DNA from: Escherichia coli
Lineage (GTDB): Bacteria; Pseudomonadota; Gammaproteobacteria; Enterobacterales; Enterobacteriaceae
Reading direction: 5' to 3' (one strand)
Assembly: GCF_003019035.1 (NCBI RefSeq)
Contig: NZ_CP027447.1
Length of the DNA stretch: 64,000 bases
Shown: positions 1-41,352 of the stretch, one piece after another
Layout of the letters: the number at the start of each line of letters is the position of its first letter
How positions within the stretch are numbered: the stretch's first letter is position 1
The notes under the pieces: generated by a model
Database searches by the model: none
Seen by the model: the letters and a program-made list of their open reading frames with translations, nothing else
What the model was told of the DNA's origin: nothing
Program-made: the position numbers and the translations under genes

Positions 1-453
1 GAAATTTTTGCTTATCGAAAACAAAATAAAAAACAGCACGCCTGCTGCAAGTAAGTCTTGCCCGGAGCCGGGTGTTGAGCGGAAATATTCATTGACCAGA
101 AGTGCAAGGCTGGCCAGTTGAAGAATAACCTTGCCAACAAGACCGCGAACGAAAAACTGTTTCACCCTTTCTGTTGACCAGAAACAGGGGTTTTTCAAAA
201 CTTCACGTTGTTCCTCAGCTGGAAAACCATGGATGTAAACGATCCAGTGTGAGTTTTCGGTTAGTGTGAGTGCTGTTCCTGTTTCATTGAGACGGTGTAT
301 GCGCATTGATATAGCAACGGGGAAAACGATGCCGATAAAAACGATGTAAAAAAATGGGGCAGAAATACCAAATGAGGCAAGAACAATGCAAAGCAATGCG
401 ATAAGTAGCATTATGACTTTGGTAAAGAATGGCGAGAATAGCTGATAATTCAT
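1..453 (-). CDS. hypothetical integral membrane protein, N-terminal part only (gene runs off the left edge)
   Basis: Own translation of minus strand from ATG at 453-451: MNYQLFSPFFTKVIMLLIALLCIVLASFGISAPFFYIVFIGIVFPVAISMRIH..., open for about 150 codons to position 1; strongly hydrophobic; absent from ORF track because no stop lies inside the window. Confidence 0.4.
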   Translation of the reverse strand, partial: MNYQLFSPFFTKVIMLLIALLCIVLASFGISAPFFYIVFIGIVFPVAISMRIHRLNETGTALTLTENSHWIVYIHGFPAEEQREVLKNPCFWSTERVKQFFVRGLVGKVILQLASLALLVNEYFRSTPGSGQDLLAAGVLFFILFSISKNF

Positions 454-543
454 TGCAAGATCCTTTTGTTATGAAGGCAGGCAATGTATCACTGGTCATT
501 AACGACCACTATGTATGGGTGATTTTTTCGGATTTCATAAAGC

Positions 544-564
544 AAAAAGCCCGCCGAAGCGAGC
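544..564 (-). terminator. intrinsic terminator at the 3' end of the tRNA operon
   Basis: On the minus-strand RNA: GCUCGC-UUCG-GCGGGC hairpin (one G-U pair) followed by a U-run, immediately after glnX. Confidence 0.5.
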
Positions 565-574
565 TTTTTTAATG

Positions 575-649
575 TGGCTGGGGTACGAGGATTCGAACCT
601 CGGAATGCCGGAATCAGAATCCGGTGCCTTACCGCTTGGCGATACCCCA
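575..649 (-). tRNA. glnX: tRNA-Gln (anticodon CUG)
   Basis: 75-nt match to the tRNA-Gln sequence on the minus strand, ending in CCA; anticodon loop reads CUG; first gene position in the conserved operon order. Confidence 0.9.
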
Positions 650-686
650 ACTGGGTGCACTTACAAGGTAAGCGTCTTGAATAAAT

Positions 687-761
687 TGGCTGGGGTACGA
701 GGATTCGAACCTCGGAATGCCGGAATCAGAATCCGGTGCCTTACCGCTTGGCGATACCCCA
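687..761 (-). tRNA. glnV: tRNA-Gln (anticodon CUG)
   Basis: Identical 75-nt copy of the preceding tRNA-Gln(CUG). Confidence 0.9.
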
Positions 762-809
762 ACAAATTGGTTTGTGAATTTGCCGAACGCATTCGACACA
801 TTCAGAATT

Positions 810-886
810 TGGTGGCTACGACGGGATTCGAACCTGTGACCCCATCATTATGAGTGATGTGCTCTAACCAACTGAGCTACGTAGCC
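810..886 (-). tRNA. metU: elongator tRNA-Met (anticodon CAU)
   Basis: 77-nt minus-strand sequence GGCUACGUAGCUCAGUUGGUUAGAGCACAUCACUCAUAAUGAUGGGGUCACAGGUUCGAAUCCCGUCGUAGCCACCA. Confidence 0.9.
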
Positions 887-901
887 AGATTGTTTCTTCG
901 A

Positions 902-976
902 TGGCTGGGGTACCTGGATTCGAACCAGGGAATGCCGGTATCAAAAACCGGTGCCTTACCGCTTGGCGATACCCCA
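902..976 (-). tRNA. glnW: tRNA-Gln (anticodon UUG)
   Basis: 75-nt tRNA-Gln with anticodon loop reading UUG on the minus strand. Confidence 0.9.
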
Positions 977-1009
977 ATAACCGGGCGGTGAACCGCTTAC
1001 TCGAAGAAG

Positions 1010-1084
1010 ATGGCTGGGGTACCTGGATTCGAACCAGGGAATGCCGGTATCAAAAACCGGTGCCTTACCGCTTGGCGATACCCC
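1010..1084 (-). tRNA. glnU: tRNA-Gln (anticodon UUG)
   Basis: Identical copy of the tRNA-Gln(UUG) gene. Confidence 0.9.
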
Positions 1085-1108
1085 ATCCGTACAACGCTTT
1101 CTGGTGAA

Positions 1109-1193
1109 TGGTGCGGGAGGCGAGACTTGAACTCGCACACCTTGCGGCGCCAGAACCTAAATCTGGTGCGTCTACCAATTTCGCCACTCCCGC
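1109..1193 (-). tRNA. leuW: tRNA-Leu (anticodon UAG)
   Basis: 85-nt class II tRNA on the minus strand with long variable arm; anticodon loop UUUAGGU. Confidence 0.9.
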
Positions 1194-1201
1194 AAAAAAG
1201 A

Positions 1202-1278
1202 TGGTGGCTACGACGGGATTCGAACCTGTGACCCCATCATTATGAGTGATGTGCTCTAACCAACTGAGCTACGTAGCC
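1202..1278 (-). tRNA. metT: elongator tRNA-Met (anticodon CAU)
   Basis: 77-nt sequence identical to metU; first gene of the operon (promoter lies at higher coordinates). Confidence 0.9.
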
Positions 1279-1610
1279 ATCTTTTTTTTCGCGATACCTT
1301 ATCGGCGTTGCGGGGCGCATTATGCGTATAGAGCCTTGCAGCGTCAACCTCTTTTTCAAGGAAAATTGCTCGAAAGTGACTGTTTGGTTAGGTTGCGAAC
1401 AGCGTGGCGCTATATTCGTCAATTATTGTTTACTTTGTGTTTTTTCCCCACCCTACAGCCATTCTTTTGTCATACAGGATGAAATTCGGAATTCAACAAT
1501 AGTGGTGGGAAATTAATCTATGAAATACTGGCCCGTTGCAACAGGACAGGGCAGGGATCGCTACGCCTGCATCTCTGCTACCACTTCAGGCGATTTATTG
1601 AGGGAATACT

Positions 1611-2048
1611 ATGCTGCGTTTTATGACGGCGCTGATGGGTGCGTTATTACTTATGCAATCTGCGTTTGCCGATACGGTCAAACCGGAAATCGGTAAATAT
1701 GTTTTTGGCTATCGTGGGCAGGAAGGCGCTGTGGTGTGGATGATGCGGATAGGGCCGAAAGCCTCTAATGAAGCCCTCATTCAGGTATCGCATGTTGATA
1801 ATGACATCGATGGCCAGATTTTTCGCTGTAAAGTGAAAGCATTACAGGAAGGTGAAAAATCCTATACCGCCGTAATTAAGGGCAAATCTTTTGAGTTATT
1901 ACGCCTGAAAGAGGGGAATGGCAGCCTGCATATTCCGGATGAGCAGGCGACCTGGTCGGTGGCCTACAGTGATGAATTGTCAAACAGTGATGTGGCAAAC
2001 CCGGAACATTTCCTTACTGCATATCAGAATCAACAAGCACCTCAATAA
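1611..2048 (+). CDS. hypothetical small secreted (periplasmic) protein, 145 aa
   Basis: ORF with GAGGGA Shine-Dalgarno 7 nt upstream of ATG; N-terminal signal peptide MLRFMTALMGALLLMQSAFA followed by DT; followed by a strong hairpin terminator; not recognised by me as a named gene. Confidence 0.55.
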   Translation: MLRFMTALMGALLLMQSAFADTVKPEIGKYVFGYRGQEGAVVWMMRIGPKASNEALIQVSHVDNDIDGQIFRCKVKALQEGEKSYTAVIKGKSFELLRLKEGNGSLHIPDEQATWSVAYSDELSNSDVANPEHFLTAYQNQQAPQ

Positions 2049-2051
2049 CTG

Positions 2052-2081
2052 AAACAGCCCCGGATTTTACCGGGGCTGTTT
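2052..2081. terminator. bidirectional hairpin terminator between convergent ORF 1611-2048 and asnB
   Basis: AAACAGCCCCGG-ATTTTAC-CGGGGCTGTTT perfect inverted repeat flanked by A- and T-runs. Confidence 0.6.
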
Positions 2082-2089
2082 CGCATTTC

Positions 2090-3754
2090 TTACTTGTACG
2101 CCGACTGGTGAACACCAACCGCACGACCAGATGGATCGTCCATTTTTTTGAACGCTTCATCCCATTCGATCGCTTTAGCGGAAGAACACGCGACGGAAGG
2201 ACCGCCCGGCACGCACTCAGCGGCGCTCGGAAGCGGGAACAGTTCTTCAAAGATCTCGCGGTACAGATACGCTTCTTTGGACGTCGGCGTGTTGTACGGG
2301 AAGCGGAAGCGGGCAGTTTCCAGCTGTTGATCAGAAACCTGCTGCGCCGCCACTTCTTTCAGGGTGTCGATCCAACTGTAACCGACGCCATCGGAGAACT
2401 GCTCTTTCTGCCGCCAGGCCACGCTTGCGGGCAGATACGCTTCAAAACATTCACGCAGGATGTGTTTTTCCATTTTGCCGTTACCGCACATTTTATCCTG
2501 TGGGTTAATGCGCATCGCCACGTCGAGGAATTTTTTGTCGAGGAACGGAACGCGTGCTTCCACGCCCCAGGCTGACATCGCTTTGTTGGCACGCGCGCAG
2601 TCATACATATGCAGGGCCAGCAGTTTACGCACCGTCTCTTCATGCAGTTCTTTGGCATTCGGCGCTTTGTGGAAGTATAGATAACCGCCAAACACTTCAT
2701 CAGATCCTTCACCGGACAGCACCATTTTAATGCCCATCGCCTTGATCTTACGCGACATTAAATACATCGGTGTTGAAGCGCGGATTGTCGTCACGTCATA
2801 GGTTTCGATGTGGTAAATCACGTCGCGGATGGCGTCCAGACCTTCCTGTACAGTGAAGTGAATTTCATGATGCACAGTGCCCAGATGGTTTGCCACTTCC
2901 TGGGCTGCCTTCAGATCCGGTGAACCCGGCAGACCTACAGCAAAGGAGTGCAGCTGCGGCCACCAGGCTTCAGAGCGTTCCTGATCTTCCACGCGACGGG
3001 CTGCGTATTTCTTGGTGATCGCGGAAATAATTGAGGAATCCAGGCCACCAGATAGCAGCACACCGTAAGGCACATCAGACATCAGATGGCTTTTAACGGA
3101 TTCTTCCAGTGCCTGACGCAGCTCGTTTTTGTCGGTCACGTTATCTTTCACCGCATCGTAGTCGAACCAGTCGCGATGATAATAAGAACGGATTTCGCCG
3201 TCCTGACTCCACAAATAGCTCCCCGCCGGGAACTCTTTAATCGTGCGGCATACCGGCACCAGGGCTTTCATTTCTGAGGCCACATACAGCTGACCATGTT
3301 CGTCATAGCCCATATACAGTGGGATGATCCCCAGATGGTCGCGACCAATCAGATATGCATCTTTTTCGCTGTCGTACAGGGCAAAGGCAAACATGCCCTG
3401 CAAGTCGTCAAGAAATTCCGGCCCTTTTTCCTGATACAGCGCGAGGATCACTTCGCAGTCAGATCCGGTCTGGAACTGATAACGATCGCCATATTCAGCG
3501 CGCAGTGCCTGGTGGTTGTAGATTTCACCGTTTACCGCCAGTACGTGGGTTTTTTGTTGGTTGTAGAGAGGTTGCGCCCCCGCGTTAACGTCAACAATTG
3601 ACAGACGTTCGTGGGCGAGAATGGCGTTATCGCTGGCATAAATACCGGACCAGTCCGGGCCACGATGACGCATCAGGCGTGACAGCTCGAGGGCTTTCTT
3701 CCGCAGCTCAACTGCGTCTGTTTTGATATCGAATACGCCAAAAATTGAACACAT
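2090..3754 (-). CDS. asnB: asparagine synthetase B (glutamine-hydrolysing)
   Basis: Translation begins MCSIFGVFDIKTD (N-terminal Cys nucleophile), 554 aa; track ORF extends upstream to an earlier in-frame ATG, trimmed here. Confidence 0.95.
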   Translation of the reverse strand: MCSIFGVFDIKTDAVELRKKALELSRLMRHRGPDWSGIYASDNAILAHERLSIVDVNAGAQPLYNQQKTHVLAVNGEIYNHQALRAEYGDRYQFQTGSDCEVILALYQEKGPEFLDDLQGMFAFALYDSEKDAYLIGRDHLGIIPLYMGYDEHGQLYVASEMKALVPVCRTIKEFPAGSYLWSQDGEIRSYYHRDWFDYDAVKDNVTDKNELRQALEESVKSHLMSDVPYGVLLSGGLDSSIISAITKKYAARRVEDQERSEAWWPQLHSFAVGLPGSPDLKAAQEVANHLGTVHHEIHFTVQEGLDAIRDVIYHIETYDVTTIRASTPMYLMSRKIKAMGIKMVLSGEGSDEVFGGYLYFHKAPNAKELHEETVRKLLALHMYDCARANKAMSAWGVEARVPFLDKKFLDVAMRINPQDKMCGNGKMEKHILRECFEAYLPASVAWRQKEQFSDGVGYSWIDTLKEVAAQQVSDQQLETARFRFPYNTPTSKEAYLYREIFEELFPLPSAAECVPGGPSVACSSAKAIEWDEAFKKMDDPSGRAVGVHQSAYK

Positions 3755-4010
3755 AACCTTCTCCGTTAACCTGGTATTTGTTGCTTGTTGTGTTTGCTTG
3801 TTTAAAAAAATGCCGCAAAGCAGCACTGTGCGCAAGCGATTTGGCGGTGGAAAAATAAAAAACGTAATGGCGATTGCTGATTTGTGAAAAAGGATAGGGT
3901 GTGGTGACGTATTTATTGATGGATCGATAATTTTGGGCGGGTTTTATTGAATAGGATGATTTTAATGATGGCTAAAAATAAGAAACCACGCCCTGAGGCG
4001 TGGTTGCTAT

Positions 4011-4763
4011 TCAGATAACGTCGATTTCAGCGACCGACGGGTAAATCCAGCTTGGGCGGAACGGCATACTGTCGATATCGTCGAGCGACGAAACACCAGA
4101 AAGCACCAGAATCGTCTCCAGACCCGCCTGGAAGCCCGCCAGAATATCGGTACGCAGGTTATCGCCGACAATCACCGTTTCTTCCGAATGCGCCTGCATT
4201 TTGTTTAATGCCGCGCGGATGATCCACGGACTCGGCTTACCAACATAGAACGGTTTACGTCCGGAGATTTTTTCGATGCCTGCACACAACGCGCCACAGG
4301 CCGGATAAAAACCGCGCCCGTGGGTGTCCGGGTTGGTGGCGATAAAGCGTGCACCGTTAGCGACGAAATAGGCTGCTTTATGCATCATGTCCCAGTTGTA
4401 GGAACGCGTTTCGCCAACAATCACGAAATCAGGGTTCACATCGGTAATAGTGAAACCGGCTTTGTACAGTTCATGAATCAGTGCGCCTTCGCCCACCACA
4501 TACGCTTTCTTGCCTTCCTGGCGACGCAGGAAATCGGCGGTCGCCATTGCAGAGGTATAAAACACGCTGTCAGGTACATCGACACCGGCAGTGGCAAAGC
4601 GGTTCGCCAGATCTTGCCCGGTCTGCGAAGGATAGTTGGTCAGCAACACCAGCGGCAGGCCTTTATCCATAATCCCGTGCAAAAATTCCGCTGCACCCGG
4701 TACGGCGACGTTATCGTGCATCAGCACGCCGTCGATATCGCAAATTACATTTTTAATGGTCAT
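4011..4763 (-). CDS. nagD: UMP phosphatase, HAD superfamily
   Basis: 250 aa starting MTIKNVICDIDGVL (HAD DxDGV motif); conserved position after nagC. Confidence 0.9.
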   Translation of the reverse strand: MTIKNVICDIDGVLMHDNVAVPGAAEFLHGIMDKGLPLVLLTNYPSQTGQDLANRFATAGVDVPDSVFYTSAMATADFLRRQEGKKAYVVGEGALIHELYKAGFTITDVNPDFVIVGETRSYNWDMMHKAAYFVANGARFIATNPDTHGRGFYPACGALCAGIEKISGRKPFYVGKPSPWIIRAALNKMQAHSEETVIVGDNLRTDILAGFQAGLETILVLSGVSSLDDIDSMPFRPSWIYPSVAEIDVI

Positions 4764-4810
4764 GGACTACCCAGAATATTGACAACAATAAGCGCCACTA
4801 TAAAAGCACA

Positions 4811-6031
4811 TTAATTTTCCAGCAAATGCTGGAGCAAAATACCGTTGAGCATGGCGCGTTTTACCAGCGCAAAAGCGCCGATTGCCGAGCGGTGATCCAG
4901 CTCAGAACGTACCACCGGCAGATTAGTGCGAAACGCCTTCAGCGCCTGGGTATTAATGCAGCTTTCAATAGCAGGGAGCAGCACTTTATCGGCTTCGGTG
5001 ATTTCACCAGCAATAACAATTTTTTGCGGATTAAATAAGTTGATAGCAATGGCGATGGTTTTACCCAGATGACGACCGACATACTCAATCACTTCCGAGG
5101 CCAGGCTATCGCCTTTGTTCGCGGCTTTGCAGATAGTTTTGATGGTGCAGTCGTCCAGTGGCACACGGCTCTGGTAGCCCTGCTTTAACAGATTCAACAC
5201 CCGTTGTTCAATGGCAGCGTTGGCGGCGATAGTTTCCAGGCAGCCAAAGTTGCCACAGTGGCAGCGTTCACCCAGCGGTTCGACCTGAATATGGCCAATT
5301 TCACCGACGTTGCCGTTGCGCCCGATAAAAATTCGCCCGTTAGAGATAATCCCGGCCCCGGTTCCACGATGGACACGCACCAGAATGGAGTCTTCGCAAT
5401 CCTGACTTGCACCGAAGTAGTGCTCTGCCAGCGCCAGACTGCGGATATCGTGGCCGACAAAACAGGTCACTTTAAAACGTTCTTCCAGTGCTTCTACCAG
5501 CCCCCAGTTTTCTACCTGAATATGCGGCATGTAATGAATTTTGCCGCTGTCCGGGTCAACAAGTCCTGGCAGGATCACGGAAATGGCGATCAGCTCGCGC
5601 AGTTTGCGCTGGTAGCTATCAATAAACTGAGCAATGGCGTTAAGCAGGGCATGTTCCAGCGTCTGCTGGGTACGTTCCGGCAGCGGGTAATGTTCTTCTG
5701 CCAGCACTTTGCTACTAAGATCAAACAGAGTGATGGTGGCGTCGTGACGACCAAGCCGTACGCCGATTGCGTGGAAATTGCGGGTTTCGGTGACGATAGA
5801 GATAGCGCGGCGGCCCCCGGTGGAGGCCTGCTGATCAACTTCTTTGATCAGCCCGCGTTCGATAAGCTGACGCGTAATTTTGGTTACGCTGGCGGGGGCA
5901 AGCTGACTTTGCTCGGCAATCTGAATCCGCGAGATTGGTCCGTACTGGTCAATCAGGCGATAAACCGCCGCGCTGTTAAGCTGTTTTACGAGATCAACAT
6001 TACCTATCTGAGCTTGTCCGCCTGGTGTCAT
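4811..6031 (-). CDS. nagC: N-acetylglucosamine repressor, ROK family
   Basis: 406 aa, N-terminal HTH plus ROK sugar-kinase-like fold; nag operon context. Confidence 0.9.
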   Translation of the reverse strand: MTPGGQAQIGNVDLVKQLNSAAVYRLIDQYGPISRIQIAEQSQLAPASVTKITRQLIERGLIKEVDQQASTGGRRAISIVTETRNFHAIGVRLGRHDATITLFDLSSKVLAEEHYPLPERTQQTLEHALLNAIAQFIDSYQRKLRELIAISVILPGLVDPDSGKIHYMPHIQVENWGLVEALEERFKVTCFVGHDIRSLALAEHYFGASQDCEDSILVRVHRGTGAGIISNGRIFIGRNGNVGEIGHIQVEPLGERCHCGNFGCLETIAANAAIEQRVLNLLKQGYQSRVPLDDCTIKTICKAANKGDSLASEVIEYVGRHLGKTIAIAINLFNPQKIVIAGEITEADKVLLPAIESCINTQALKAFRTNLPVVRSELDHRSAIGAFALVKRAMLNGILLQHLLEN

Positions 6032-6039
6032 ACTTTCTC

Positions 6040-8048
<2,009 letters not shown>

Positions 8049-8380
8049 TATTCACCTCAATAAGTAAAATGTAAGCCGTTGGCGGATTAGGCATCTTTAA
8101 GCGTAACCTGGATTTGCGCAGACAGGCGTCAATCCGACCTGATTTTTTGAATGATAAAATAAGTTTTCTGGTTTAGCCAGTAAAAGGGAGTGATGATAAC
8201 GATATTTGGTGACAAAACTCACAAAAGACACGCGTTTAATTTGCGATACGAATTAAATTTTCACACACTCTGTAGCAGATGATCTAACAATCTGATTACA
8301 GAACATCGGCAGTACAATTTGCAGCAAAATAAAAATACGGCTTTAAACGAGCCAAATAGGGTTCTCGTAGGGGGAATAAG
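8049..8380. promoter_or_regulatory. divergent nagB / nagE promoter region
   Basis: 332-bp AT-rich intergenic region between divergently oriented nagB and nagE; in this family it holds CRP and NagC operators, but individual sites were not mapped here. Confidence 0.5.
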
Positions 8381-10327
8381 ATGAATATTTTAGGTTTTTT
8401 CCAGCGACTCGGTAGGGCGTTACAGCTCCCTATCGCGGTGCTGCCGGTGGCGGCGCTGTTGCTGCGATTCGGTCAGCCAGATTTACTTAACGTTGCGTTT
8501 ATTGCCCAGGCGGGCGGTGCGATTTTTGATAACCTCGCATTAATCTTCGCCATCGGTGTGGCATCCAGCTGGTCGAAAGACAGCGCAGGTGCGGCGGCAC
8601 TGGCGGGTGCGGTAGGTTACTTTGTGTTAACCAAAGCGATGGTTACCATCAACCCAGAAATTAACATGGGTGTACTGGCGGGTATCATTACCGGTCTGGT
8701 TGGTGGCGCAGCTTATAACCGTTGGTCCGATATTAAACTGCCGGACTTCCTGAGTTTCTTCGGCGGCAAACGCTTTGTGCCGATTGCCACCGGCTTCTTC
8801 TGCCTGGTGCTGGCGGCCATTTTTGGTTACGTCTGGCCGCCGGTACAGCACGCTATCCATGCAGGCGGCGAGTGGATCGTTTCTGCGGGCGCGCTGGGTT
8901 CCGGTATCTTTGGTTTCATCAACCGTCTGCTGATCCCAACCGGTCTGCATCAGGTGCTGAACACCATCGCCTGGTTCCAGATTGGTGAATTCACCAACGC
9001 GGCGGGTACGGTTTTCCACGGTGATATCAACCGCTTCTATGCCGGTGACGGCACCGCGGGGATGTTCATGTCCGGCTTCTTCCCGATCATGATGTTCGGT
9101 CTGCCGGGTGCGGCGCTGGCGATGTACTTCGCAGCACCGAAAGAGCGCCGTCCGATGGTTGGCGGGATGTTGCTTTCTGTTGCTGTTACTGCGTTCCTGA
9201 CCGGTGTGACTGAGCCGCTGGAATTCCTGTTCATGTTCCTTGCACCGCTGCTGTACCTCCTGCACGCACTGCTGACCGGTATCAGCCTGTTTGTGGCAAC
9301 GTTGCTGGGTATCCATGCCGGCTTCTCTTTCTCTGCGGGGGCTATCGACTACGCGTTGATGTATAACCTGCCGGCCGCCAGCCAGAACGTCTGGATGCTG
9401 CTGGTGATGGGGGTTGTCTTCTTCGCTATCTACTTCGTGGTGTTCAGTTTGGTTATCCGCATGTTCAACCTGAAAACGCCAGGTCGTGAAGATAAAGAAG
9501 ACGAGATCGTTACTGAAGAGGCTAACAGCAATACTGAAGAAGGTCTCAATCAACTGGCAACCAACTATATTGCTGCGGTTGGCGGTACTGACAACCTGAA
9601 AGCCATTGACGCCTGTATTACTCGTCTGCGCCTGACCGTGGTTGACTCAGCTCGCGTCAACGATGCGATGTGTAAACGTCTGGGGGCTTCTGGGGTAGTG
9701 AAACTGAACAAACAGACTATTCAGGTGATTGTTGGCGCGAAAGCGGAATCCATTGGCGATGCAATGAAGAAAGTTGTTGCCCGTGGTCCGGTAGCCGCTG
9801 CGTCAGCTGAAACTGCTCCGGCAACTGCCGCGCCTGTAGCAAAACCGCAGGCTGTACCAAACGCAGTATCTATCGCGGAGCTGGTATCGCCGATTACCGG
9901 TGATGTTGTGGCACTGGATCAGGTTCCTGACGAAGCATTCGCCAGCAAAGCGGTGGGTGACGGTGTGGCGGTGAAACCGACAGATAAAATCGTCGTATCA
10001 CCAGCCGCAGGGACTATCGTGAAAATCTTCAACACCAACCACGCATTCTGCCTGGAAACTGAAAAAGGCGCGGAGATTGTCGTCCATATGGGTATCGACA
10101 CCGTAGCGCTGGAAGGTAAAGGCTTTAAACGTCTGGTGGAAGAGGGCGCGCAAGTAAGCGCAGGGCAACCGATTCTGGAAATGGATCTGGATTATCTGAA
10201 CGAAAACGCCCGCTCGATGATTAGCCCGGTGGTTTGCAGCAATATCGACGATTTCAGCGGCTTGATCATTAAAGCTCAGGGCCATGTCGTGGCGGGTCAA
10301 ACGCCGCTGTATGAAATCAAAAAGTAA
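8381..10327 (+). CDS. nagE: PTS N-acetylglucosamine-specific EIICBA component
   Basis: 648 aa; membrane EIIC domain followed by EIIB and EIIA domains. Confidence 0.95.
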   Translation: MNILGFFQRLGRALQLPIAVLPVAALLLRFGQPDLLNVAFIAQAGGAIFDNLALIFAIGVASSWSKDSAGAAALAGAVGYFVLTKAMVTINPEINMGVLAGIITGLVGGAAYNRWSDIKLPDFLSFFGGKRFVPIATGFFCLVLAAIFGYVWPPVQHAIHAGGEWIVSAGALGSGIFGFINRLLIPTGLHQVLNTIAWFQIGEFTNAAGTVFHGDINRFYAGDGTAGMFMSGFFPIMMFGLPGAALAMYFAAPKERRPMVGGMLLSVAVTAFLTGVTEPLEFLFMFLAPLLYLLHALLTGISLFVATLLGIHAGFSFSAGAIDYALMYNLPAASQNVWMLLVMGVVFFAIYFVVFSLVIRMFNLKTPGREDKEDEIVTEEANSNTEEGLNQLATNYIAAVGGTDNLKAIDACITRLRLTVVDSARVNDAMCKRLGASGVVKLNKQTIQVIVGAKAESIGDAMKKVVARGPVAAASAETAPATAAPVAKPQAVPNAVSIAELVSPITGDVVALDQVPDEAFASKAVGDGVAVKPTDKIVVSPAAGTIVKIFNTNHAFCLETEKGAEIVVHMGIDTVALEGKGFKRLVEEGAQVSAGQPILEMDLDYLNENARSMISPVVCSNIDDFSGLIIKAQGHVVAGQTPLYEIKK

Positions 10328-33863: not shown

Positions 33864-36800
33864 ATGAGCGGAAAACCGGCGGCGCGTCAGGGCGACATGA
33901 CGCAGTATGGCGGTAGCATTGTTCAGGGTTCAGCCGGGGTACGTATTGGTGCTCCCACCGGCGTGGCCTGTTCGGTGTGCCCCGGCGGGGTGACGTCCGG
34001 CCATCCGGTCAATCCGCTGCTCGGTGCGAAGGTCCTTCCCGGCGAAACCGACCTTGCCCTGCCCGGCCCGCTGCCGTTCATCCTCTCCCGCACCTACAGC
34101 AGTTACCGGACAAAAACGCCCGCGCCGGTGGGGAGCCTCGGCCCCGGCTGGAAAATGCCCGCGGATATCCGCTTACAGCTGCGCGATAACACACTGATAC
34201 TCAGTGATAACGGCGGCAGGAGCCTGTATTTTGAGCACCTGTTTCCCGGTGAGGACGGTTACAGCCGCAGCGAGTCACTCTGGCTGGTGCGCGGCGGCGT
34301 GGCGAAACTGGATGAAGGTCACCGGCTGGCCGCACTCTGGCAGGCGCTGCCGGAAGAGCTTCGCCTGAGTCCGCATCGTTATCTGGCGACGAACAGTCCG
34401 CAGGGGCCGTGGTGGGTACTCGGCTGGTGTGAGCAGGTGCCGGAGGCGGATGAGGTGCTGCCCGCGCCGCTGCCGCCGTACCGGGTACTGACCGGGCTGG
34501 TGGACCGCTTCGGGCGCACACAGACGTTTCACCGTGAGGCTGGCGGTGAATTCAGCGGCGAAATCACCGGCGTGACGGATGGTGCCGGGCGTCACTTCCG
34601 GCTGGTACTGACCACGCAGGCGCTGCGGGCAGAAGAGGCCCGGCAGCAGGCCATTTCCGGCGGGACGGAACCGTCCGCTTTTCCTGATACCCTGCCGGAC
34701 TACACGGAATATGGCCGGGACAACGGCATCCGCCTGTCCGCCGTGTGGCTGACGCACGACCCGGAATATCCGGACAACCTGCCAGCCGCGCCGCTGGTAC
34801 GCTATGGCTGGACGCCACGCGGCGAACTGGCGGCGGTGTATGACCGCAGCGGCACACAGGTGCGCAGCTTTACTTACGATGATAAATACCGGGGCCGGAT
34901 GGTGGCGCACCGTCACACGGGCCGGCCGGAAATCCGTTACCGTTACGACAGCGACGGGCGGGTGACAGAACAGCTAAACCCGGCAGGCTTAAGCTACACG
35001 TATCAGTATGAGAAAGACCGCATCACCATCACCGACAGCCTGGACCGCCGTGAAGTCCTGCACACGCAGGGCGAAGGCGGGCTGAAGCGGGTGGTGAAAA
35101 AGGAACACGCGGACGGCAGCGTCACGCAGAGTCAGTTTGACGCGGTGGGCAGGCTTAAGGCACAGACGGATGCCGCAGGCCGGACGACTGAGTACAGCCC
35201 GGATGTGGTGACGGGACTCATCACGCGCATCACCACGCCGGATGGCAGGGCATCGGCGTTTTACTATAACCACCACAGCCAGTTAACGTCAGCCACCTGG
35301 CCTGACGGGCTGGAAATACGCCGGGAATATGATGAATCCGGCCGTCTGATTCAGGAAACCGCCCCTGACGGCGATATCACCCGCTACCGTTATGATAATC
35401 CACACAGTGACTTCCCCTGCGCAACGGAGGATGCCACCGGCAGCCGGAAAACCATGACGTGGAGCCGTTACGGTCAGTTGCTGACCTTCACCGACTGTTC
35501 CGGCTACCAGACCCGTTATGACCATGACCGCTTCGGGCAGATGACGGCGGTGCACCGCGAGGAAGGCCTGAGCCAGTGCCGCGCATACGACAGCCGTGGA
35601 CAGTTAATTGCGGTGAAAGACACGCAGGGCCATGAAACGCGGTATGAATACAACGCCGCCGGTGACCTGACCGCCGTCATTGCCCCGGACGGCAGCAGAA
35701 ACGGGGCACAGTACGATGCGTGGGGAAAGGCCGTCCGTACCACGCAGGGCGGGCTGACCCGCAGTATGGAATACGATGCTGCAGGACGGGTCATCCGCCT
35801 GACAAACGAAAACGGCAGCCACACCACCTTCCGTTACGATGTACTCGACCGGCTGATACAGGAAACCGGCTTTGACGGCCGCACACAGCGTTACCACCAC
35901 GACCTGACCGGCAAACTTATCCGCAGCGAGGATGAGGGGCTGGTCACCCACTGGCACTATGACGAAGCAGACCGCCTCACGCAGCGCACCGTGAATGGCG
36001 AAACCGCAGAGCGGTGGCAGTATGACGAACGCGGCTGGCTGACAGGCATCAGCCATCTCAGCGAAGGGCACCGGGTGACGGTGCATTACAGGTATGATGA
36101 GAAAGGCCGCCTGACCGGTGAGCGCCAGACGGTGCATCACCCGCAGACGGAAGCACTGCTCTGGCAGCATGAAACCAGACATGCGTACAATGCGCAGGGG
36201 CTGGCGAACCGCTGTATACCGGACAGCCTGCCCGCCGTGGAATGGCTGACTTATGGCAGTGGTTACCTGGCAGGGATGAAGCTGGGTGACTCGCCCCTGG
36301 TGGAGTACACCCGCGACCGCCTGCACCGGGAAACGCTGCGCAGCTTCGGCCGTTATGAACTCACCACCGCTTATACCCCTGCCGGGCAGTTACAGAGCCA
36401 GCACCTGAACAGCCTGCAGTATGACCGCGATTACACCTGGAACGACAACGGCGAACTCATTCGCATCAGCAGCCCGCGCCAGACCCGGAGTTACAGCTAC
36501 AGCGACTCCGGCAGGCTGACCGGCGTTCACACCACCGCAGCGAACCTGGATATCCGCATCCCGTATGCCACGGACCCGGCAGGTAACCGCCTGCCCGACC
36601 CGGAGCTGCACCCGGACAGCACCCTCAGCATGTGGCCGGATAACCGTATCGCCCGTGACGCGCACTATCTTTACCGGTATGACCGTCACGGCAGGCTGAC
36701 GGAGAAAACCGACCTCATCCCGGAAGGGGTTATCCGCACGGATGATGAGCGGACTCACCGGTACCATTACGACAGCCGGCACCGGCTGGTGCACTACACG

Positions 36801-38063
36801 CGGACACAATATGCAGAGCCGCTGGTCGAAAGTCGCTATCTTTACGACCCGCTGGGCCGCAGGGTGGCAAAACGGGTGTGGCGGCGTGAACGGGACCTGA
36901 CGGGCTGGATGTCGCTGTCACGGAAACCGGAAGTGACCTGGTACGGCTGGGACGGCGACCGGCTGACCACGATACAGAACGACAGAACCCGCATCCAGAC
37001 GATTTATCAGCCGGGGAGCTTCACGCCACTCATCAGGGTCGAAACTGCCACCGGTGAGCTGGCGAAAACGCAGCGCCGCAGCCTGGCGGATGCGCTTCAG
37101 CAGTCCGGCGGCGAAAACGGTGGCAGTGTGGTGTTCCCGCCGGTGCTGGTGCAGATGCTCGACCGGCTGGAAAGTGAAATCCTGGCTGACCGGGTGAGTG
37201 AGGAAAGCCGCCGCTGGCTGGCATCGTGCGGCCTGACGGTGGCGCAGATGCAAAACCAGATGGACCCGGTGTACACACCGGCGCGAAAAATCCACCTGTA
37301 CCACTGCGACCATCGCGGCCTGCCGCTGGCGCTTGTCAGCACGGAAGGGGCAACAGAATGGTGCGCAGAATACGATGAGTGGGGCAACCTGCTGAATGAA
37401 GAGAACCCGCACCAGCTGCAGCAGCTCATCCGCCTGCCGGGTCAGCAGTATGATGAGGAGTCCGGCCTGTATTACAACCGCCACCGCTATTATGACCCGC
37501 TGCAGGGGCGGTATATCACTCAGGATCCTATTGGGCTGAAGGGGGGATGGAATTTTTATCAGTATCCGTTGAATCCGGTTCAGTATATAGATTCAATGGG
37601 ACTGGCATCAAAATATGGACACTTAAATAATGGCGGATATGGAGCGAGACCCAACAAACCGCCTACGCCCGATCCAAGTAAATTGCCAGACATAGCGAAA
37701 CAATTAAGACTGCCATATCCTATTGACCAGGCCAGTAGTGCGCCTAATGTTTTCAAAACATTCTTCAGAGCATTAAGCCCTTACGACTACACACTGTATT
37801 GCAGGAAGTGGGTAAAACCAAATCTGACTTGTACGCCACAGGATGATCCCCAGTATCCAGGGATGGATACAAAGACAGCAAGTGATTACCTGCCACAGAC
37901 AAATTGGCCAACAACTCAATTACCACCAGGATATACTTGTGCAGAACCCTATTTATTCCCAGACATTAATAAACCCGATGGGCCAGCAACAGCAGGGATA
38001 GATGATTTGGGTGAAATTTTAGCTAAAATGAAACAGAGAACATCGAGAGGAATAAGAAAATGA
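33864..38063 (+). CDS. rhsC: Rhs-family polymorphic toxin (N-terminal PAAR-like region, YD-repeat shell, DPIGL core end, ~175-aa variable C-terminal tip)
   Basis: 1399 aa; PAARQGD motif at residues 5-11; GC-rich repeat core; DPIGL at 37523-37537; sharp GC drop after it; located after ybfA as rhsC is in K-12. Confidence 0.9.
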
Positions 38064-38629
38064 AAAGAATTTTGTTCTTTTTGCTGATGATATTTGTTAG
38101 TTTTGGTGTTATAGCTGATTGCGAAACACAAGCTAAAGATCAAGATTGCTTTACCATTTTCACTAAGGGTACTATTTTTTCCGCGTTTCCTGTCTTAAAT
38201 AATAAAACCATATGGAGATGGTATCAGAATGAGGACATAGGTGAGTATTATTGGCAAACAGAACTTGGTATATGTAAAAATAACAAATTCACACCAAGCG
38301 GGGCGAGACTCTTAATTCGCGTCGGATCACTACGCCTTAATGAAAATCATGCAACCAAAGGAACGTTGCAGGAGTTGCTAAATACAGCAGAAAAAACGGC
38401 GTTTCTCGGCGATCGGTTTAGAAGTTATATAAGAGCGGGTATCTATCAAAAAAAGAGCAGTGATCCAGCTCAGTTGTTGGCAGTCCTTGATAATTCAATC
38501 ATGGTTAAATATTTTAAAGATGAGAAGCCAACTTATGCTCGAATGACAGCACATCTCCCGAACAAAGATGAGTCTTACGAATGTTTAACAAAAGTACAGC
38601 ATGAACTGCTTCGTAGTGAAGAAAAATAA
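38060..38629 (+). CDS. predicted cognate immunity protein of the Rhs tip (signal-peptide bearing)
   Basis: 189 aa; start overlaps the rhs stop (ATGA); N-terminal [19 protein letters not shown] hydrophobic signal; AT-rich like the toxin tip. Confidence 0.55.
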
Positions 38630-38797: not shown

Positions 38798-39100
38798 ATG
38801 AGAAACTCACTAATATTACTTATTATGATATTGTTTACAATATCACACTCAGTATTTGGAAAAGAAAATTCAGTGGAAATTTTAGTAAATAGTCGTGAAA
38901 TGGCTTTGGAATTATCATATGTTTACATTAAATATGTATACGGGAAAGAAAAAGCAGAATTTCAGAAACCATATAGTATTACAGATGACAATAATTGTTG
39001 GAAAATCGAGGGAAAACAACCGAAGACGTTAGGAGGAAATTTTACAATACTAATAGCGAAAAAAGATGGGCAAGTGTTGAATGTAATACACACAAAATAA
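38798..39100 (+). CDS. small secreted protein, likely orphan immunity protein
   Basis: 100 aa with signal peptide MRNSLILLIMILFTISHSVFG; AT-rich; lies directly after a start-less toxin-tip-like reading frame (38651-38788). Confidence 0.45.
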   Translation: MRNSLILLIMILFTISHSVFGKENSVEILVNSREMALELSYVYIKYVYGKEKAEFQKPYSITDDNNCWKIEGKQPKTLGGNFTILIAKKDGQVLNVIHTK

Positions 39101-39279: not shown

Positions 39280-39645
39280 AGTGACTCCCCCTAACGTCGT
39301 ACTAAATAGTAATTACTGTCCATACCGGGAGCAGTATTCGGCGCTCCCCACATGCAGCAGAATAACCGCATCAGCGAAGATGTATTGTATTTTTACTATC
39401 ACAATGTGTACGGACGGTTTATGGAAAAGAATGAAAATTAGATACGCGATGGGGCGGCAGGTTACACGGTTATCACTACGATAGCCAATACTGGCTGGTG
39501 CATTACCGCCGTGAACAATAGGACGCCGTACTGCTGGAAATTTCTTACCTTTATGACTCCCCGCGCCGCCGTATTGGGAAACGGGAAGCAATCAAGATGA
39601 GGCTGATATAATGTGCGGAATGCCTGAGTATTTTTAGAATAGGGG
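39280..39645 (+). pseudogene. decayed fragment of a divergent Rhs core
   Basis: GC-rich island in an AT-rich stretch; frames read YHYDSQYWLVHYRREQ* and LYDSPRRRIGKRE, resembling the core segment [12 protein letters not shown]...[12 protein letters not shown] of the intact rhs, with stops and frameshifts. Confidence 0.5.
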
Positions 39646-39651
39646 GGTAAT

Positions 39652-40053
39652 ATGTTTGATAGAATATATCTTGGTGATCGAGCAATAAAAAAAATTGAAT
39701 TTTATTTATGGACTAAACAAATTAGAATTCAGGTTAATTTAATCTCAAGGATAGCCTATGGTACAACAGAATGGAATTTTTATGATAATGAAGACTTAGA
39801 AGATGGTTATTTGGTATTTTCAGATGTTAGTTTCTTCAATATAACTCCTAATGGCTCTATTCCTGATGATTATATAATTTCAATAATTACAGATAATGTC
39901 AATGTTGAATATTTTGAATCAACTATAGTTGCAGTTGGACAAATTCCAAATACAAATTCTGGAGACATTGATAATATTGGTGAGTGTCAAATTTTCATCA
40001 GGTATAAACACAGCTGGATTGAGAATAAATTCAAAGAAAAAATAATTGAATAA
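39652..40053 (+). CDS. hypothetical cytoplasmic protein, possible orphan immunity protein
   Basis: 133 aa; GGGGGG Shine-Dalgarno; very AT-rich; sits immediately after the decayed Rhs fragment. Confidence 0.45.
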   Translation: MFDRIYLGDRAIKKIEFYLWTKQIRIQVNLISRIAYGTTEWNFYDNEDLEDGYLVFSDVSFFNITPNGSIPDDYIISIITDNVNVEYFESTIVAVGQIPNTNSGDIDNIGECQIFIRYKHSWIENKFKEKIIE

Positions 40054-40145: not shown

Positions 40146-40400
40146 ACTCAACGACGCAAACCGAATAACCTGCCGCTGGCGCTTATCAGCACGGAAGGGG
40201 CAACAGAATGGTGCGCAGAATACGATGAATGGGGCAACCTGCTGAATGAAGAGAACCCGCACCAGCTGCAGCAGCTCATCCGCCTGCCGGGTCAGCAGTA
40301 TGATGAGGAGTCCGGCCTGTATTACAACCGCCACCGCTATTATGACCCGCTGCAGGGGCCAGGGAAAGATCACGTAACGCTGCTTTTTTGTACTAAATAA
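40146..40400 (+). pseudogene. start-less orphan Rhs core-end fragment with alternative 13-aa tip
   Basis: 40170-40358 is nearly identical to 37319-37507 of the intact rhs ([63 protein letters not shown]), then diverges to [13 protein letters not shown]; in-frame stop at 40143 and no start codon. Confidence 0.7.
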
Positions 40401-40503: not shown

Positions 40504-41352
40504 ATGGAACTTAAAAAATTGATGGAGCATATTTCTATTATCCCAGATTACAGACAAGCCTGGAAAGTGGAACATAAATTGTCTGATATTCTACTGTTGA
40601 CTATTTGTGACGTTATTTCTGGTGCAGAAGGTTGGGAAGATATAGAGGATTTTGGGGAAACACATCTCGATTTTTTAAAACAATATGGTGATTTTGAAAA
40701 TGGTATTCCTGTTCACGATACCATTGCCAGAGTTGTATCCTGTATCAGTCCTGCAAAATTTCACGAGTGCTTTATTAACTGGATGCGTGACTGCCATTCT
40801 TCAGATGATAAAGACGTCATTGCAATTGATGGAAAAACGCTCCGGCACTCTTATGACAAGAGTCGCCGCAAGGGAGCGATTCATGTCATTAGTGCGTTCT
40901 CAACAATGCACAGTCTGGTCATCGGACAGATCAAGACGGATGAGAAATCCAATGAGATCACAGCTATCCCGGAACTTCTTAACATGCTGAATATTAAAGG
41001 AAAAATCATCACAACTGATGCGATGGGTTGCCAGAAAGATATTGCAGAGAAGATACAAAAACAGGGCGGTGATTATTTATTCGCTGTAAAAGGAAACCAG
41101 GGGCGGCTAAATAAAGCCTTCGAGGAAAAATTTCCGCTGAAAGAATTAAATAATCCAGAGCATGGCAGTTACGCAATGAGTGAAAAGAGTCACGGCAGAG
41201 AAGAAATCCGTCTTCATATTGTTTGCGATGTCCCTGATGAACTTATTGATTTCACGTTTGAATGGAAAGGGCAGCCATGGACAGAAAATATCTGGCGTCA
41301 GTCCTTGCGGGGAGCGTGCTTTCGTAATTTTGCCCTGCTACAACAGGATTAA
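40504..41352 (+). mobile_element. ybfD: H-repeat-associated (ISAs1-family) transposase gene, internally deleted derivative (ybfD-like)
   Basis: 282-aa [35 protein letters not shown]... running into an out-of-frame tail; a 16-codon frame (41277-41327, [16 protein letters not shown]) that I recall as the C-terminus of full-length H-repeat proteins lies in another frame. Confidence 0.7.

Follow-up and report, generated by a model that had tools for sequence, protein, structure and literature searches.

A candidate Rhs toxin of the YbfO-CT type and its predicted Sec-exported immunity protein, YbfC, at the rhsC locus of Escherichia coli

Results

Gene layout at the rhsC locus

The 64,000-nucleotide (nt) stretch of DNA analyzed here (the window; contig NZ_CP027447.1 of assembly GCF_003019035.1) is an ordinary piece of Escherichia coli chromosome that carries the rhsC locus; kdpA-kdpF-ybfA lie on its upstream side and ybgA-phr-dtpD on its downstream side. 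An rhsC-type rhs gene (33864..38063, + strand) encodes a protein of 1399 amino acids (aa) that is built from an N-terminal DUF6531 domain, a YD-repeat shell, a protease plug and a C-terminal toxin tip. It is followed by ybfC (38060..38629, + strand), an open reading frame (ORF) of 189 aa for a predicted Sec-exported immunity protein. The two genes are translationally coupled; the ATG of ybfC shares the sequence ATGA at 38060-38063 with the TGA of rhs, and a Shine-Dalgarno-like GAGG lies 9 nt 5' of the ybfC start.

The Rhs ORF matches the NCBIfam model NF041261 (RHS_core) over aa 1-1247 with 2630.8 bits (cut-off 2000), the models YD_repeat_2x and Rhs_assc_core match it likewise, and the Pfam domain DUF6531 lies at aa 46-123 (E 4e-18). 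Two motifs of the DPxGL type were found at the end of the core, both on the + strand. The first, DPIGL (aa 1221-1225; 37524..37538), is separated by 17 residues from a second, degenerate motif, DSMGL (aa 1243-1247; 37590..37604), in which serine stands for proline and the aspartate is kept. The cleavage site of Photorhabdus Rhs1 comes after a pair of DPLGL motifs spaced by 17 residues, of which the second supplies the catalytic aspartate (PMC8636562). By analogy, we infer that Asp1243 is the catalytic residue and that autocleavage would occur after L1247. Because the RHS_core match ends at aa 1247, together with DSMGL, the released toxin should begin at A1248 (nt 37605) and comprise 152 aa (A1248-K1399; 37605..38060, + strand). 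We call this domain the YbfO-CT type.

The guanine plus cytosine (GC) content is 0.60-0.63 in the core until about nt 37500, 0.44-0.47 in the tip and 0.32-0.39 in the ybfC ORF. A preliminary description of the window, made from the letters alone, had pointed to such a drop past the core boundary, to a 189-aa ORF that begins inside the rhs stop codon, and to several cysteines in the tip; we observed all of these, the cysteines being three among the 174 residues after DPIGL. It had also placed the core boundary at DPIGL, with a tip of about 175 residues behind it. The motif is present, one base away from the position given (37523-37537), and 174 residues do follow it, but the toxin itself should be 152 aa long since the core ends only after DSMGL. 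The shell model, the spacing of the two motifs, the low-GC tip with its linked gene, and the orphan remnants found downstream together place the locus among the Rhs polymorphic toxins.

Relationship to E. coli K-12 and distribution of the module

The tip is identical in 173 of 174 residues to the C-terminus of K-12 ybfO (b0703), an orphan rhs gene annotated as a pseudogene, and the 189-aa ORF is identical in 175 of 189 residues to K-12 YbfC (b0704). RefSeq names the ORF 'hypothetical protein' or 'protein YbfC', and it shares 93% identity with proteins of the latter name. As sequences, the two cannot count as new, K-12 having been known to contain them for decades; 'unrecognised', as the tip had been called, means that it was never classified or tested. 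A comparison with K-12 had been proposed, with rhsC and ybfB as the genes to be compared. Those two do not match: the K-12 rhsC tip is unrelated to the tip in the window, and neither this tip nor ybfB is present in the window. The K-12 counterparts are ybfO and ybfC instead.

The DNA is 96% identical to K-12 rhsC up to nt 37592, and divergence starts after the residues YPLNP, at about nt 37578-37592. Relative to the K-12 locus (L002), the window DNA joins segments 1-7312 and 8149-10263, which puts the ybfO-type tip directly on the full-length core. A ybfO-type tip on a full core, without the K-12 rhsC tip and ybfB, is what one would expect if core repeats had recombined (C-terminal displacement). 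Essentially the same genes therefore occupy the same chromosomal site between kdp and phr in both strains, but the K-12 tip belongs to an orphan fragment of 477 codons that comes after rhsC-ybfB, whereas that of the window sits on an intact 1399-aa core.

When nt 37539-38626 of the window were aligned with nt 9130-10217 of L002, the tip differed at 4 of 522 nt (0.8%) and ybfC at 26 of 567 nt (4.6%). The tip carries one nonsynonymous and three synonymous changes relative to K-12, with a ratio of nonsynonymous to synonymous substitution rates (dN/dS) of about 0.09, and ybfC has 12 synonymous and 14 nonsynonymous codons, with a dN/dS of about 0.30. From these alignments, recombination seems to have had a breakpoint close to where the toxin and immunity genes meet; the toxin appears nearly fixed while its partner varies. 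Diversifying selection on ybfC was considered and rejected, since dS is raised along with the dN/dS ratio and a recombination mosaic fits better.

The module of tip and ybfC is present in 3518 of 5426 complete E. coli genomes (about 65%), as one copy each with 95-99% identity, and its carriers include K-12, BL21 and O157:H7. It is found either on a full 'RHS element core protein', as in the window and O157:H7, or on a truncated orphan, as in K-12 and BL21. The K-12-type arrangement of rhsC tip, ybfB and ybfO occurs in 2523 genomes, and the exact arrangement of the window, including the NTF2 gene downstream, in 844.

In an O157:H7 genome, this tip and ybfC are found at 97.9% identity, the tip on a full-length core protein. 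The genes RhsC (z0847/z0851) and 'RhsCI' (z0853) of the enterohemorrhagic E. coli (EHEC) strain EDL933 probably have the same arrangement, although EDL933 itself was not aligned. An in-silico study of EHEC treats RhsC and RhsCI as effector and immunity protein, found no significant motif and proposed a role in vesicle traffic from a TM-score of 0.574; a signal peptide is not reported there (PMC7216683). A transcriptome table calls ybfC a 'putative secreted protein' (PMC6033998), and a 2025 paper has ybfC without functional annotation (PMC11954222). A full-text literature search found no functional study of the tip or of ybfC.

The toxin and YbfC are paired in diverged loci

We then asked whether the two genes stay together outside E. 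coli. Genome contigs were scanned for toxin homologues with a trimmed core alignment, and all diverged loci that could be retrieved were compared: three metagenomic loci (L003, L006 and L008) and those of Phytobacter ursingii (L011), Acidovorax (L012), Ralstonia (L013) and Paracidovorax (L014). A YbfC homologue directly follows the toxin homologue in all seven, at identities of about 34-73% for the toxin and 22-63% for YbfC, and the same 4-nt overlap between the two genes is seen in five of them. The adjacency, the coupling and the co-divergence make the pairing of toxin and YbfC solid, and the proposal of the preliminary description that the ORF is the cognate partner of the tip is supported by these comparisons.

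L008 carries two YbfC paralogues in tandem. Downstream of the pair in the Ralstonia locus (Ralstonia sp. UBA689; L013 2390-3075), we observed a C-terminal remnant of a toxin (...STADFNDRVELLRRIRENMRNRIK) and then a fragment of a YbfC homologue. This truncated second copy repeats, in Betaproteobacteria, the orphan-pair arrangement. As judged from the sequences, such tandem copies and orphan remnants would be typical behavior of immunity genes.

Two short contigs (L009 and L010), binned in metagenome-assembled genomes as 'Flavobacterium psychrophilum' and 'Candidatus Nanosynbacter', also carry the E. coli ybfO-CT/ybfC module, at 97-99% identity. Both almost certainly come from E. coli DNA that had contaminated the bins.

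Export features, cysteines and predicted fold of YbfC

A signal peptide is predicted at aa 1-19 of YbfC (38060..38116, + strand) from hydropathy, a near-invariant A19 and the n-h-c architecture. The N-terminus consists of MKR, 15 uninterrupted hydrophobic residues and V-I-A/D (the slash marks the end of the predicted signal peptide), with a peak 9-residue Kyte-Doolittle mean of 3.41. All YbfC homologues retain this succession of charged, hydrophobic and small residues, even though the sequence itself is not conserved. No alternative ybfC start bypasses the hydrophobic segment while retaining the conserved C21. Export of YbfC, anticipated from the signal-like segment in the preliminary description, is thus a well-supported prediction.

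Two cysteines of YbfC, C30 and C175, are invariant. Two others, C21 and C72, are jointly present in the E. coli clade and L003 and jointly absent from L006 and both L008 copies. This retention or loss in pairs suggests that the cysteines behave as disulfide partners. We also considered whether C21 could be lipidated. Many members have D, T, N or Y directly before it, and this, together with the covariation of C21 and C72, argues against lipidation; YbfC as a lipoprotein was therefore rejected.

The structure model of YbfC is a beta-sandwich with a predicted template modeling score (pTM) of 0.72. YbfC had no match in Pfam, NCBIfam, PADLOC or the PDB, searched with the single sequence and with the profile, and no profile match or specific fold match to the known immunity families (Imm-*, SUKH, Tsi/Tai/Tli).

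The toxin tip lies outside described families

The tip contains 14.5% proline, has a proline-rich N-terminal third and is slightly basic. Its C-terminus is predicted to form an amphipathic helix that ends in a conserved basic ...R-K. In the family alignment, roughly 100 residues form a core (SPYDYtxYCxKW ... C ... PG.D.KT..DY.P ... LP.GY.C.EPY.FP(D/E) ... A.TAGIDD) with three near-invariant cysteines, present in 18 of 18, 18 of 19 and 20 of 20 homologues, down to about 25% identity. The family is small, with 28 representatives in an exhaustive HMMER search of 1.84 billion proteins. The matches that were inspected are located at Rhs C-termini, except for a single repeat protein, which is unrelated, and several short fragments.

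The earlier statement that the tip belongs to no known toxin family held in every search. Past the end of the core there was no match in Pfam, NCBIfam or PADLOC; neither the single sequence nor the family profile matched PDB sequences; and no motif hit came from the supplements of three surveys of toxins (the Salmonella STox families, a preprint on the discovery of polymorphic toxins, and Zhang et al. 2012). Comparison with known toxin families (Tox-, Ntox, nucleases, deaminases, ADP-ribosyltransferases, amidases, colicin-M-like) gave no significant profile or fold match.

Three candidate activities were considered and set aside. DxYDx5HR is the motif of colicin M; in a comparison of the tip with colicin-M-like lipid II phosphatases, a Y-D...C-R stretch in the tip proved to be spaced differently from it, and its arginine is not conserved. 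A Cys-His amidase or transglutaminase is unlikely, since the toxin family alignment contains no conserved histidine. A helical pore-former is also unlikely, since the tip has no hydrophobic segment, its maximum 19-residue hydropathy being 0.14. Lacking both a membrane-spanning segment and a conserved histidine, the toxin is unlikely to be either a classical pore-former or a Cys-His hydrolase.

Discussion

Proposed mode of action and alternatives

The locus probably encodes a complete Rhs module in which a T6SS-type toxin (T6SS, type VI secretion system) acts in the periplasm or cell envelope and is blocked by a Sec-exported beta-sandwich immunity protein; we hold this with moderate confidence. 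The RhsC shell (aa 1-1247) would enclose the 152-aa tip, and the aspartyl-protease plug would cut after L1247. Delivery would be contact-dependent and, judging from the Rhs family, most likely through a T6SS. In the target cell the tip would act in the periplasm or envelope, where it is probably stabilized or activated by disulfides among its three conserved cysteines. YbfC, exported by its Sec signal peptide, would fold in the periplasm as a disulfide-bonded beta-sandwich and neutralize the incoming toxin through direct binding. A more specific proposal, for which the chances seem to us about even, is that YbfO-CT is a new disulfide-dependent periplasmic toxin fold, caged in Rhs and countered by a Sec-exported, immunoglobulin-like YbfC, and possibly not a hydrolase.

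Several points weigh against a periplasmic Rhs toxin of this kind. According to published surveys, the cytoplasm is almost the sole site of action of Rhs and PAAR-Rhs effectors (bioRxiv 10.1101/2024.02.26.582050; PMC12994826). The odd number of conserved cysteines in the tip is not by itself proof of disulfides. The structure model of the toxin is poor, with a predicted local distance difference test score (pLDDT) of 60 and a pTM of 0.42, and a fold search with it had no match, which leaves no basis for naming an activity. In K-12, the annotation treats the toxin part as a pseudogene. As for delivery, the PAAR_motif of Pfam matches the Rhs ORF weakly (aa 2-20, E 0.24), and the ORF map of the 64-kb window, not annotated in detail, has no T6SS genes on it; the delivery route is therefore assumed. 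In L003, the toxin homologue adjoins Gp5/VgrG-like and DUF2169 genes.

These points leave room for other explanations. The toxin could act in the cytoplasm, with a periplasmic or membrane-tethered YbfC that intercepts it on its way and keeps it from being imported through the inner membrane. The strongly basic C-terminus and the proline-rich N-terminal third could indeed serve translocation. However, cysteines that persist at three positions even at about 25% identity suit an oxidizing compartment better, and a producer cell would be left unprotected from its own cytoplasmic pool of toxin. We are also aware of no T6SS or Rhs toxin that acts in the cytoplasm and is countered by an immunity protein in the periplasm, and we regard this explanation as unlikely. 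Slightly more doubtful is the idea of a decaying relic, in which the tip is inactive and ybfC persists as an orphan immunity gene or a hitch-hiker. The pseudogene annotation of ybfO would agree with it, as would the roughly 2500 genomes of the K-12-type arrangement with the tip on a truncated orphan fragment, the lack of a known phenotype for ybfC (PMC11954222), and one cited study in which EHEC showed no bactericidal T6SS activity (PMC7216683). Against decay, the 1399-aa Rhs protein of the window is intact, with the tip in its reading frame and both protease aspartates present, the dN/dS of the tip relative to K-12 indicates strong constraint, the family and its partner are conserved into Betaproteobacteria, and the module is kept as a single copy, at 95-99% identity, in 65% of the genomes.

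YbfC might, alternatively, not be an immunity protein at all but a secreted accessory protein or co-effector, or an uncleaved signal-anchor membrane protein of unrelated function. It has no homology to known immunity families, its beta-sandwich fold is generic, and some homologues have a lipobox-like A-[AS]-C right before the first cysteine. Yet the strict adjacency, the 4-nt overlap and the co-divergence with the toxin across the loci examined argue against such a role, the tandem duplicates and orphan copies resemble immunity genes, and the residues that precede C21 in many members, with the covariation of C21 and C72, speak against lipidation. We consider a role for YbfC other than immunity very improbable. 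Taken together, the cysteine pattern, the constraint on the tip and the conserved pairing are less consistent with these three explanations than with a periplasm- or envelope-acting toxin and an exported immunity protein.

Comparison with characterized toxins

As a system, the locus appears to be a standard Rhs toxin/immunity module; what is unusual, by sequence, is a partner predicted to be exported and disulfide-bonded, and a toxin that cannot be classified. With the characterized Rhs toxins used for comparison (Photorhabdus Rhs1-Tre23, Pseudomonas protegens RhsA, Aeromonas TseI and the Dickeya/Enterobacter Rhs nucleases) it shares the shell of YD repeats, a pair of DPxGL-type motifs with 17 residues between them, a short, polymorphic toxin at the C-terminus, an immunity gene that follows with an overlap, and orphan tips downstream. 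Those toxins, however, are cytoplasmic nucleases or ADP-ribosyltransferases with cytoplasmic immunity proteins, whereas the pair in the window combines a partner that has a predicted signal peptide and paired cysteines with a toxin that has no recognizable enzyme fold. The periplasmic T6SS pairs Tse1/Tsi1, Tae4/Tai4, Tlde1/Tldi1 and Tox-Act1/Imm-Act1 are similar in that their immunity proteins are exported or membrane-tethered and the toxin is harmless in the cytoplasm of the producer (PMC12994826, in part). They differ in being stand-alone cargo effectors with hydrolase folds (Cys-His amidases, L,D-transpeptidase-like and NlpC/P60), whereas the toxin described here is an Rhs-encapsulated tip with no conserved histidine and no fold similarity to them.

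Among the means by which enterobacteria compete on contact, Rhs toxins are a principal one, and neither the tip nor YbfC falls in any described family, although roughly two of every three complete E. coli genomes have them. If the toxin does act in the periplasm or envelope, the pair would be a clear case of an Rhs-encapsulated effector working there, would indicate a new envelope target and would offer an easy K-12 model for the release of cargo from the Rhs cage outside the cytoplasm. The ybfC gene of K-12 would then be an orphan immunity gene against the toxin of many wild E. coli strains. If it does not, the tip is one further unclassified Rhs tip.

The downstream rhs tail

The pair is followed by the tail of the same rhs element, with orphan genes and remnants, all on the + strand. 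An orphan immunity gene of the Imm-NTF2-2 family (38798..39100) matches Pfam PF15631 over aa 35-100 (E 2.7e-20) and is annotated in RefSeq as 'NTF2 fold immunity protein'. The ORF that we found is 100 aa long, compared with 76 aa in RefSeq, and its additional N-terminus, MRNSLILLIMILFTISHSVFG, resembles a signal peptide, suggesting that this second immunity gene of the rhs tail may be exported too.

A second orphan candidate immunity gene (39652..40053) is assigned to the DUF6258 family by the RefSeq annotation of an identical locus; it had no match in NCBIfam or PADLOC. Just 5' of it, at 39453-39587 (+ strand, in the frame of 39102), a stop-interrupted stretch translates into an rhs-core-like peptide (HYDSQ..LVHY...YLYDS.RRR.GKR). 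It had no match to the rhs core by blastn and may be a decayed rhs remnant that has lost its tip.

An orphan 3' fragment of an rhs core lies at 40169..40359, as indicated by its translation, by blastn to the K-12 rhs core and by the RefSeq annotation 'RHS repeat-associated core domain... missing N-terminus'. It stops at ...YYDPLQG against an ISAs1/H-repeat element, whose transposase gene (40504-41352) is ybfQ/ybfD-like and 96% identical to K-12 YbfQ over 79 aa; through this insertion the DPxGL motifs, and whatever tip the fragment had carried, were lost.

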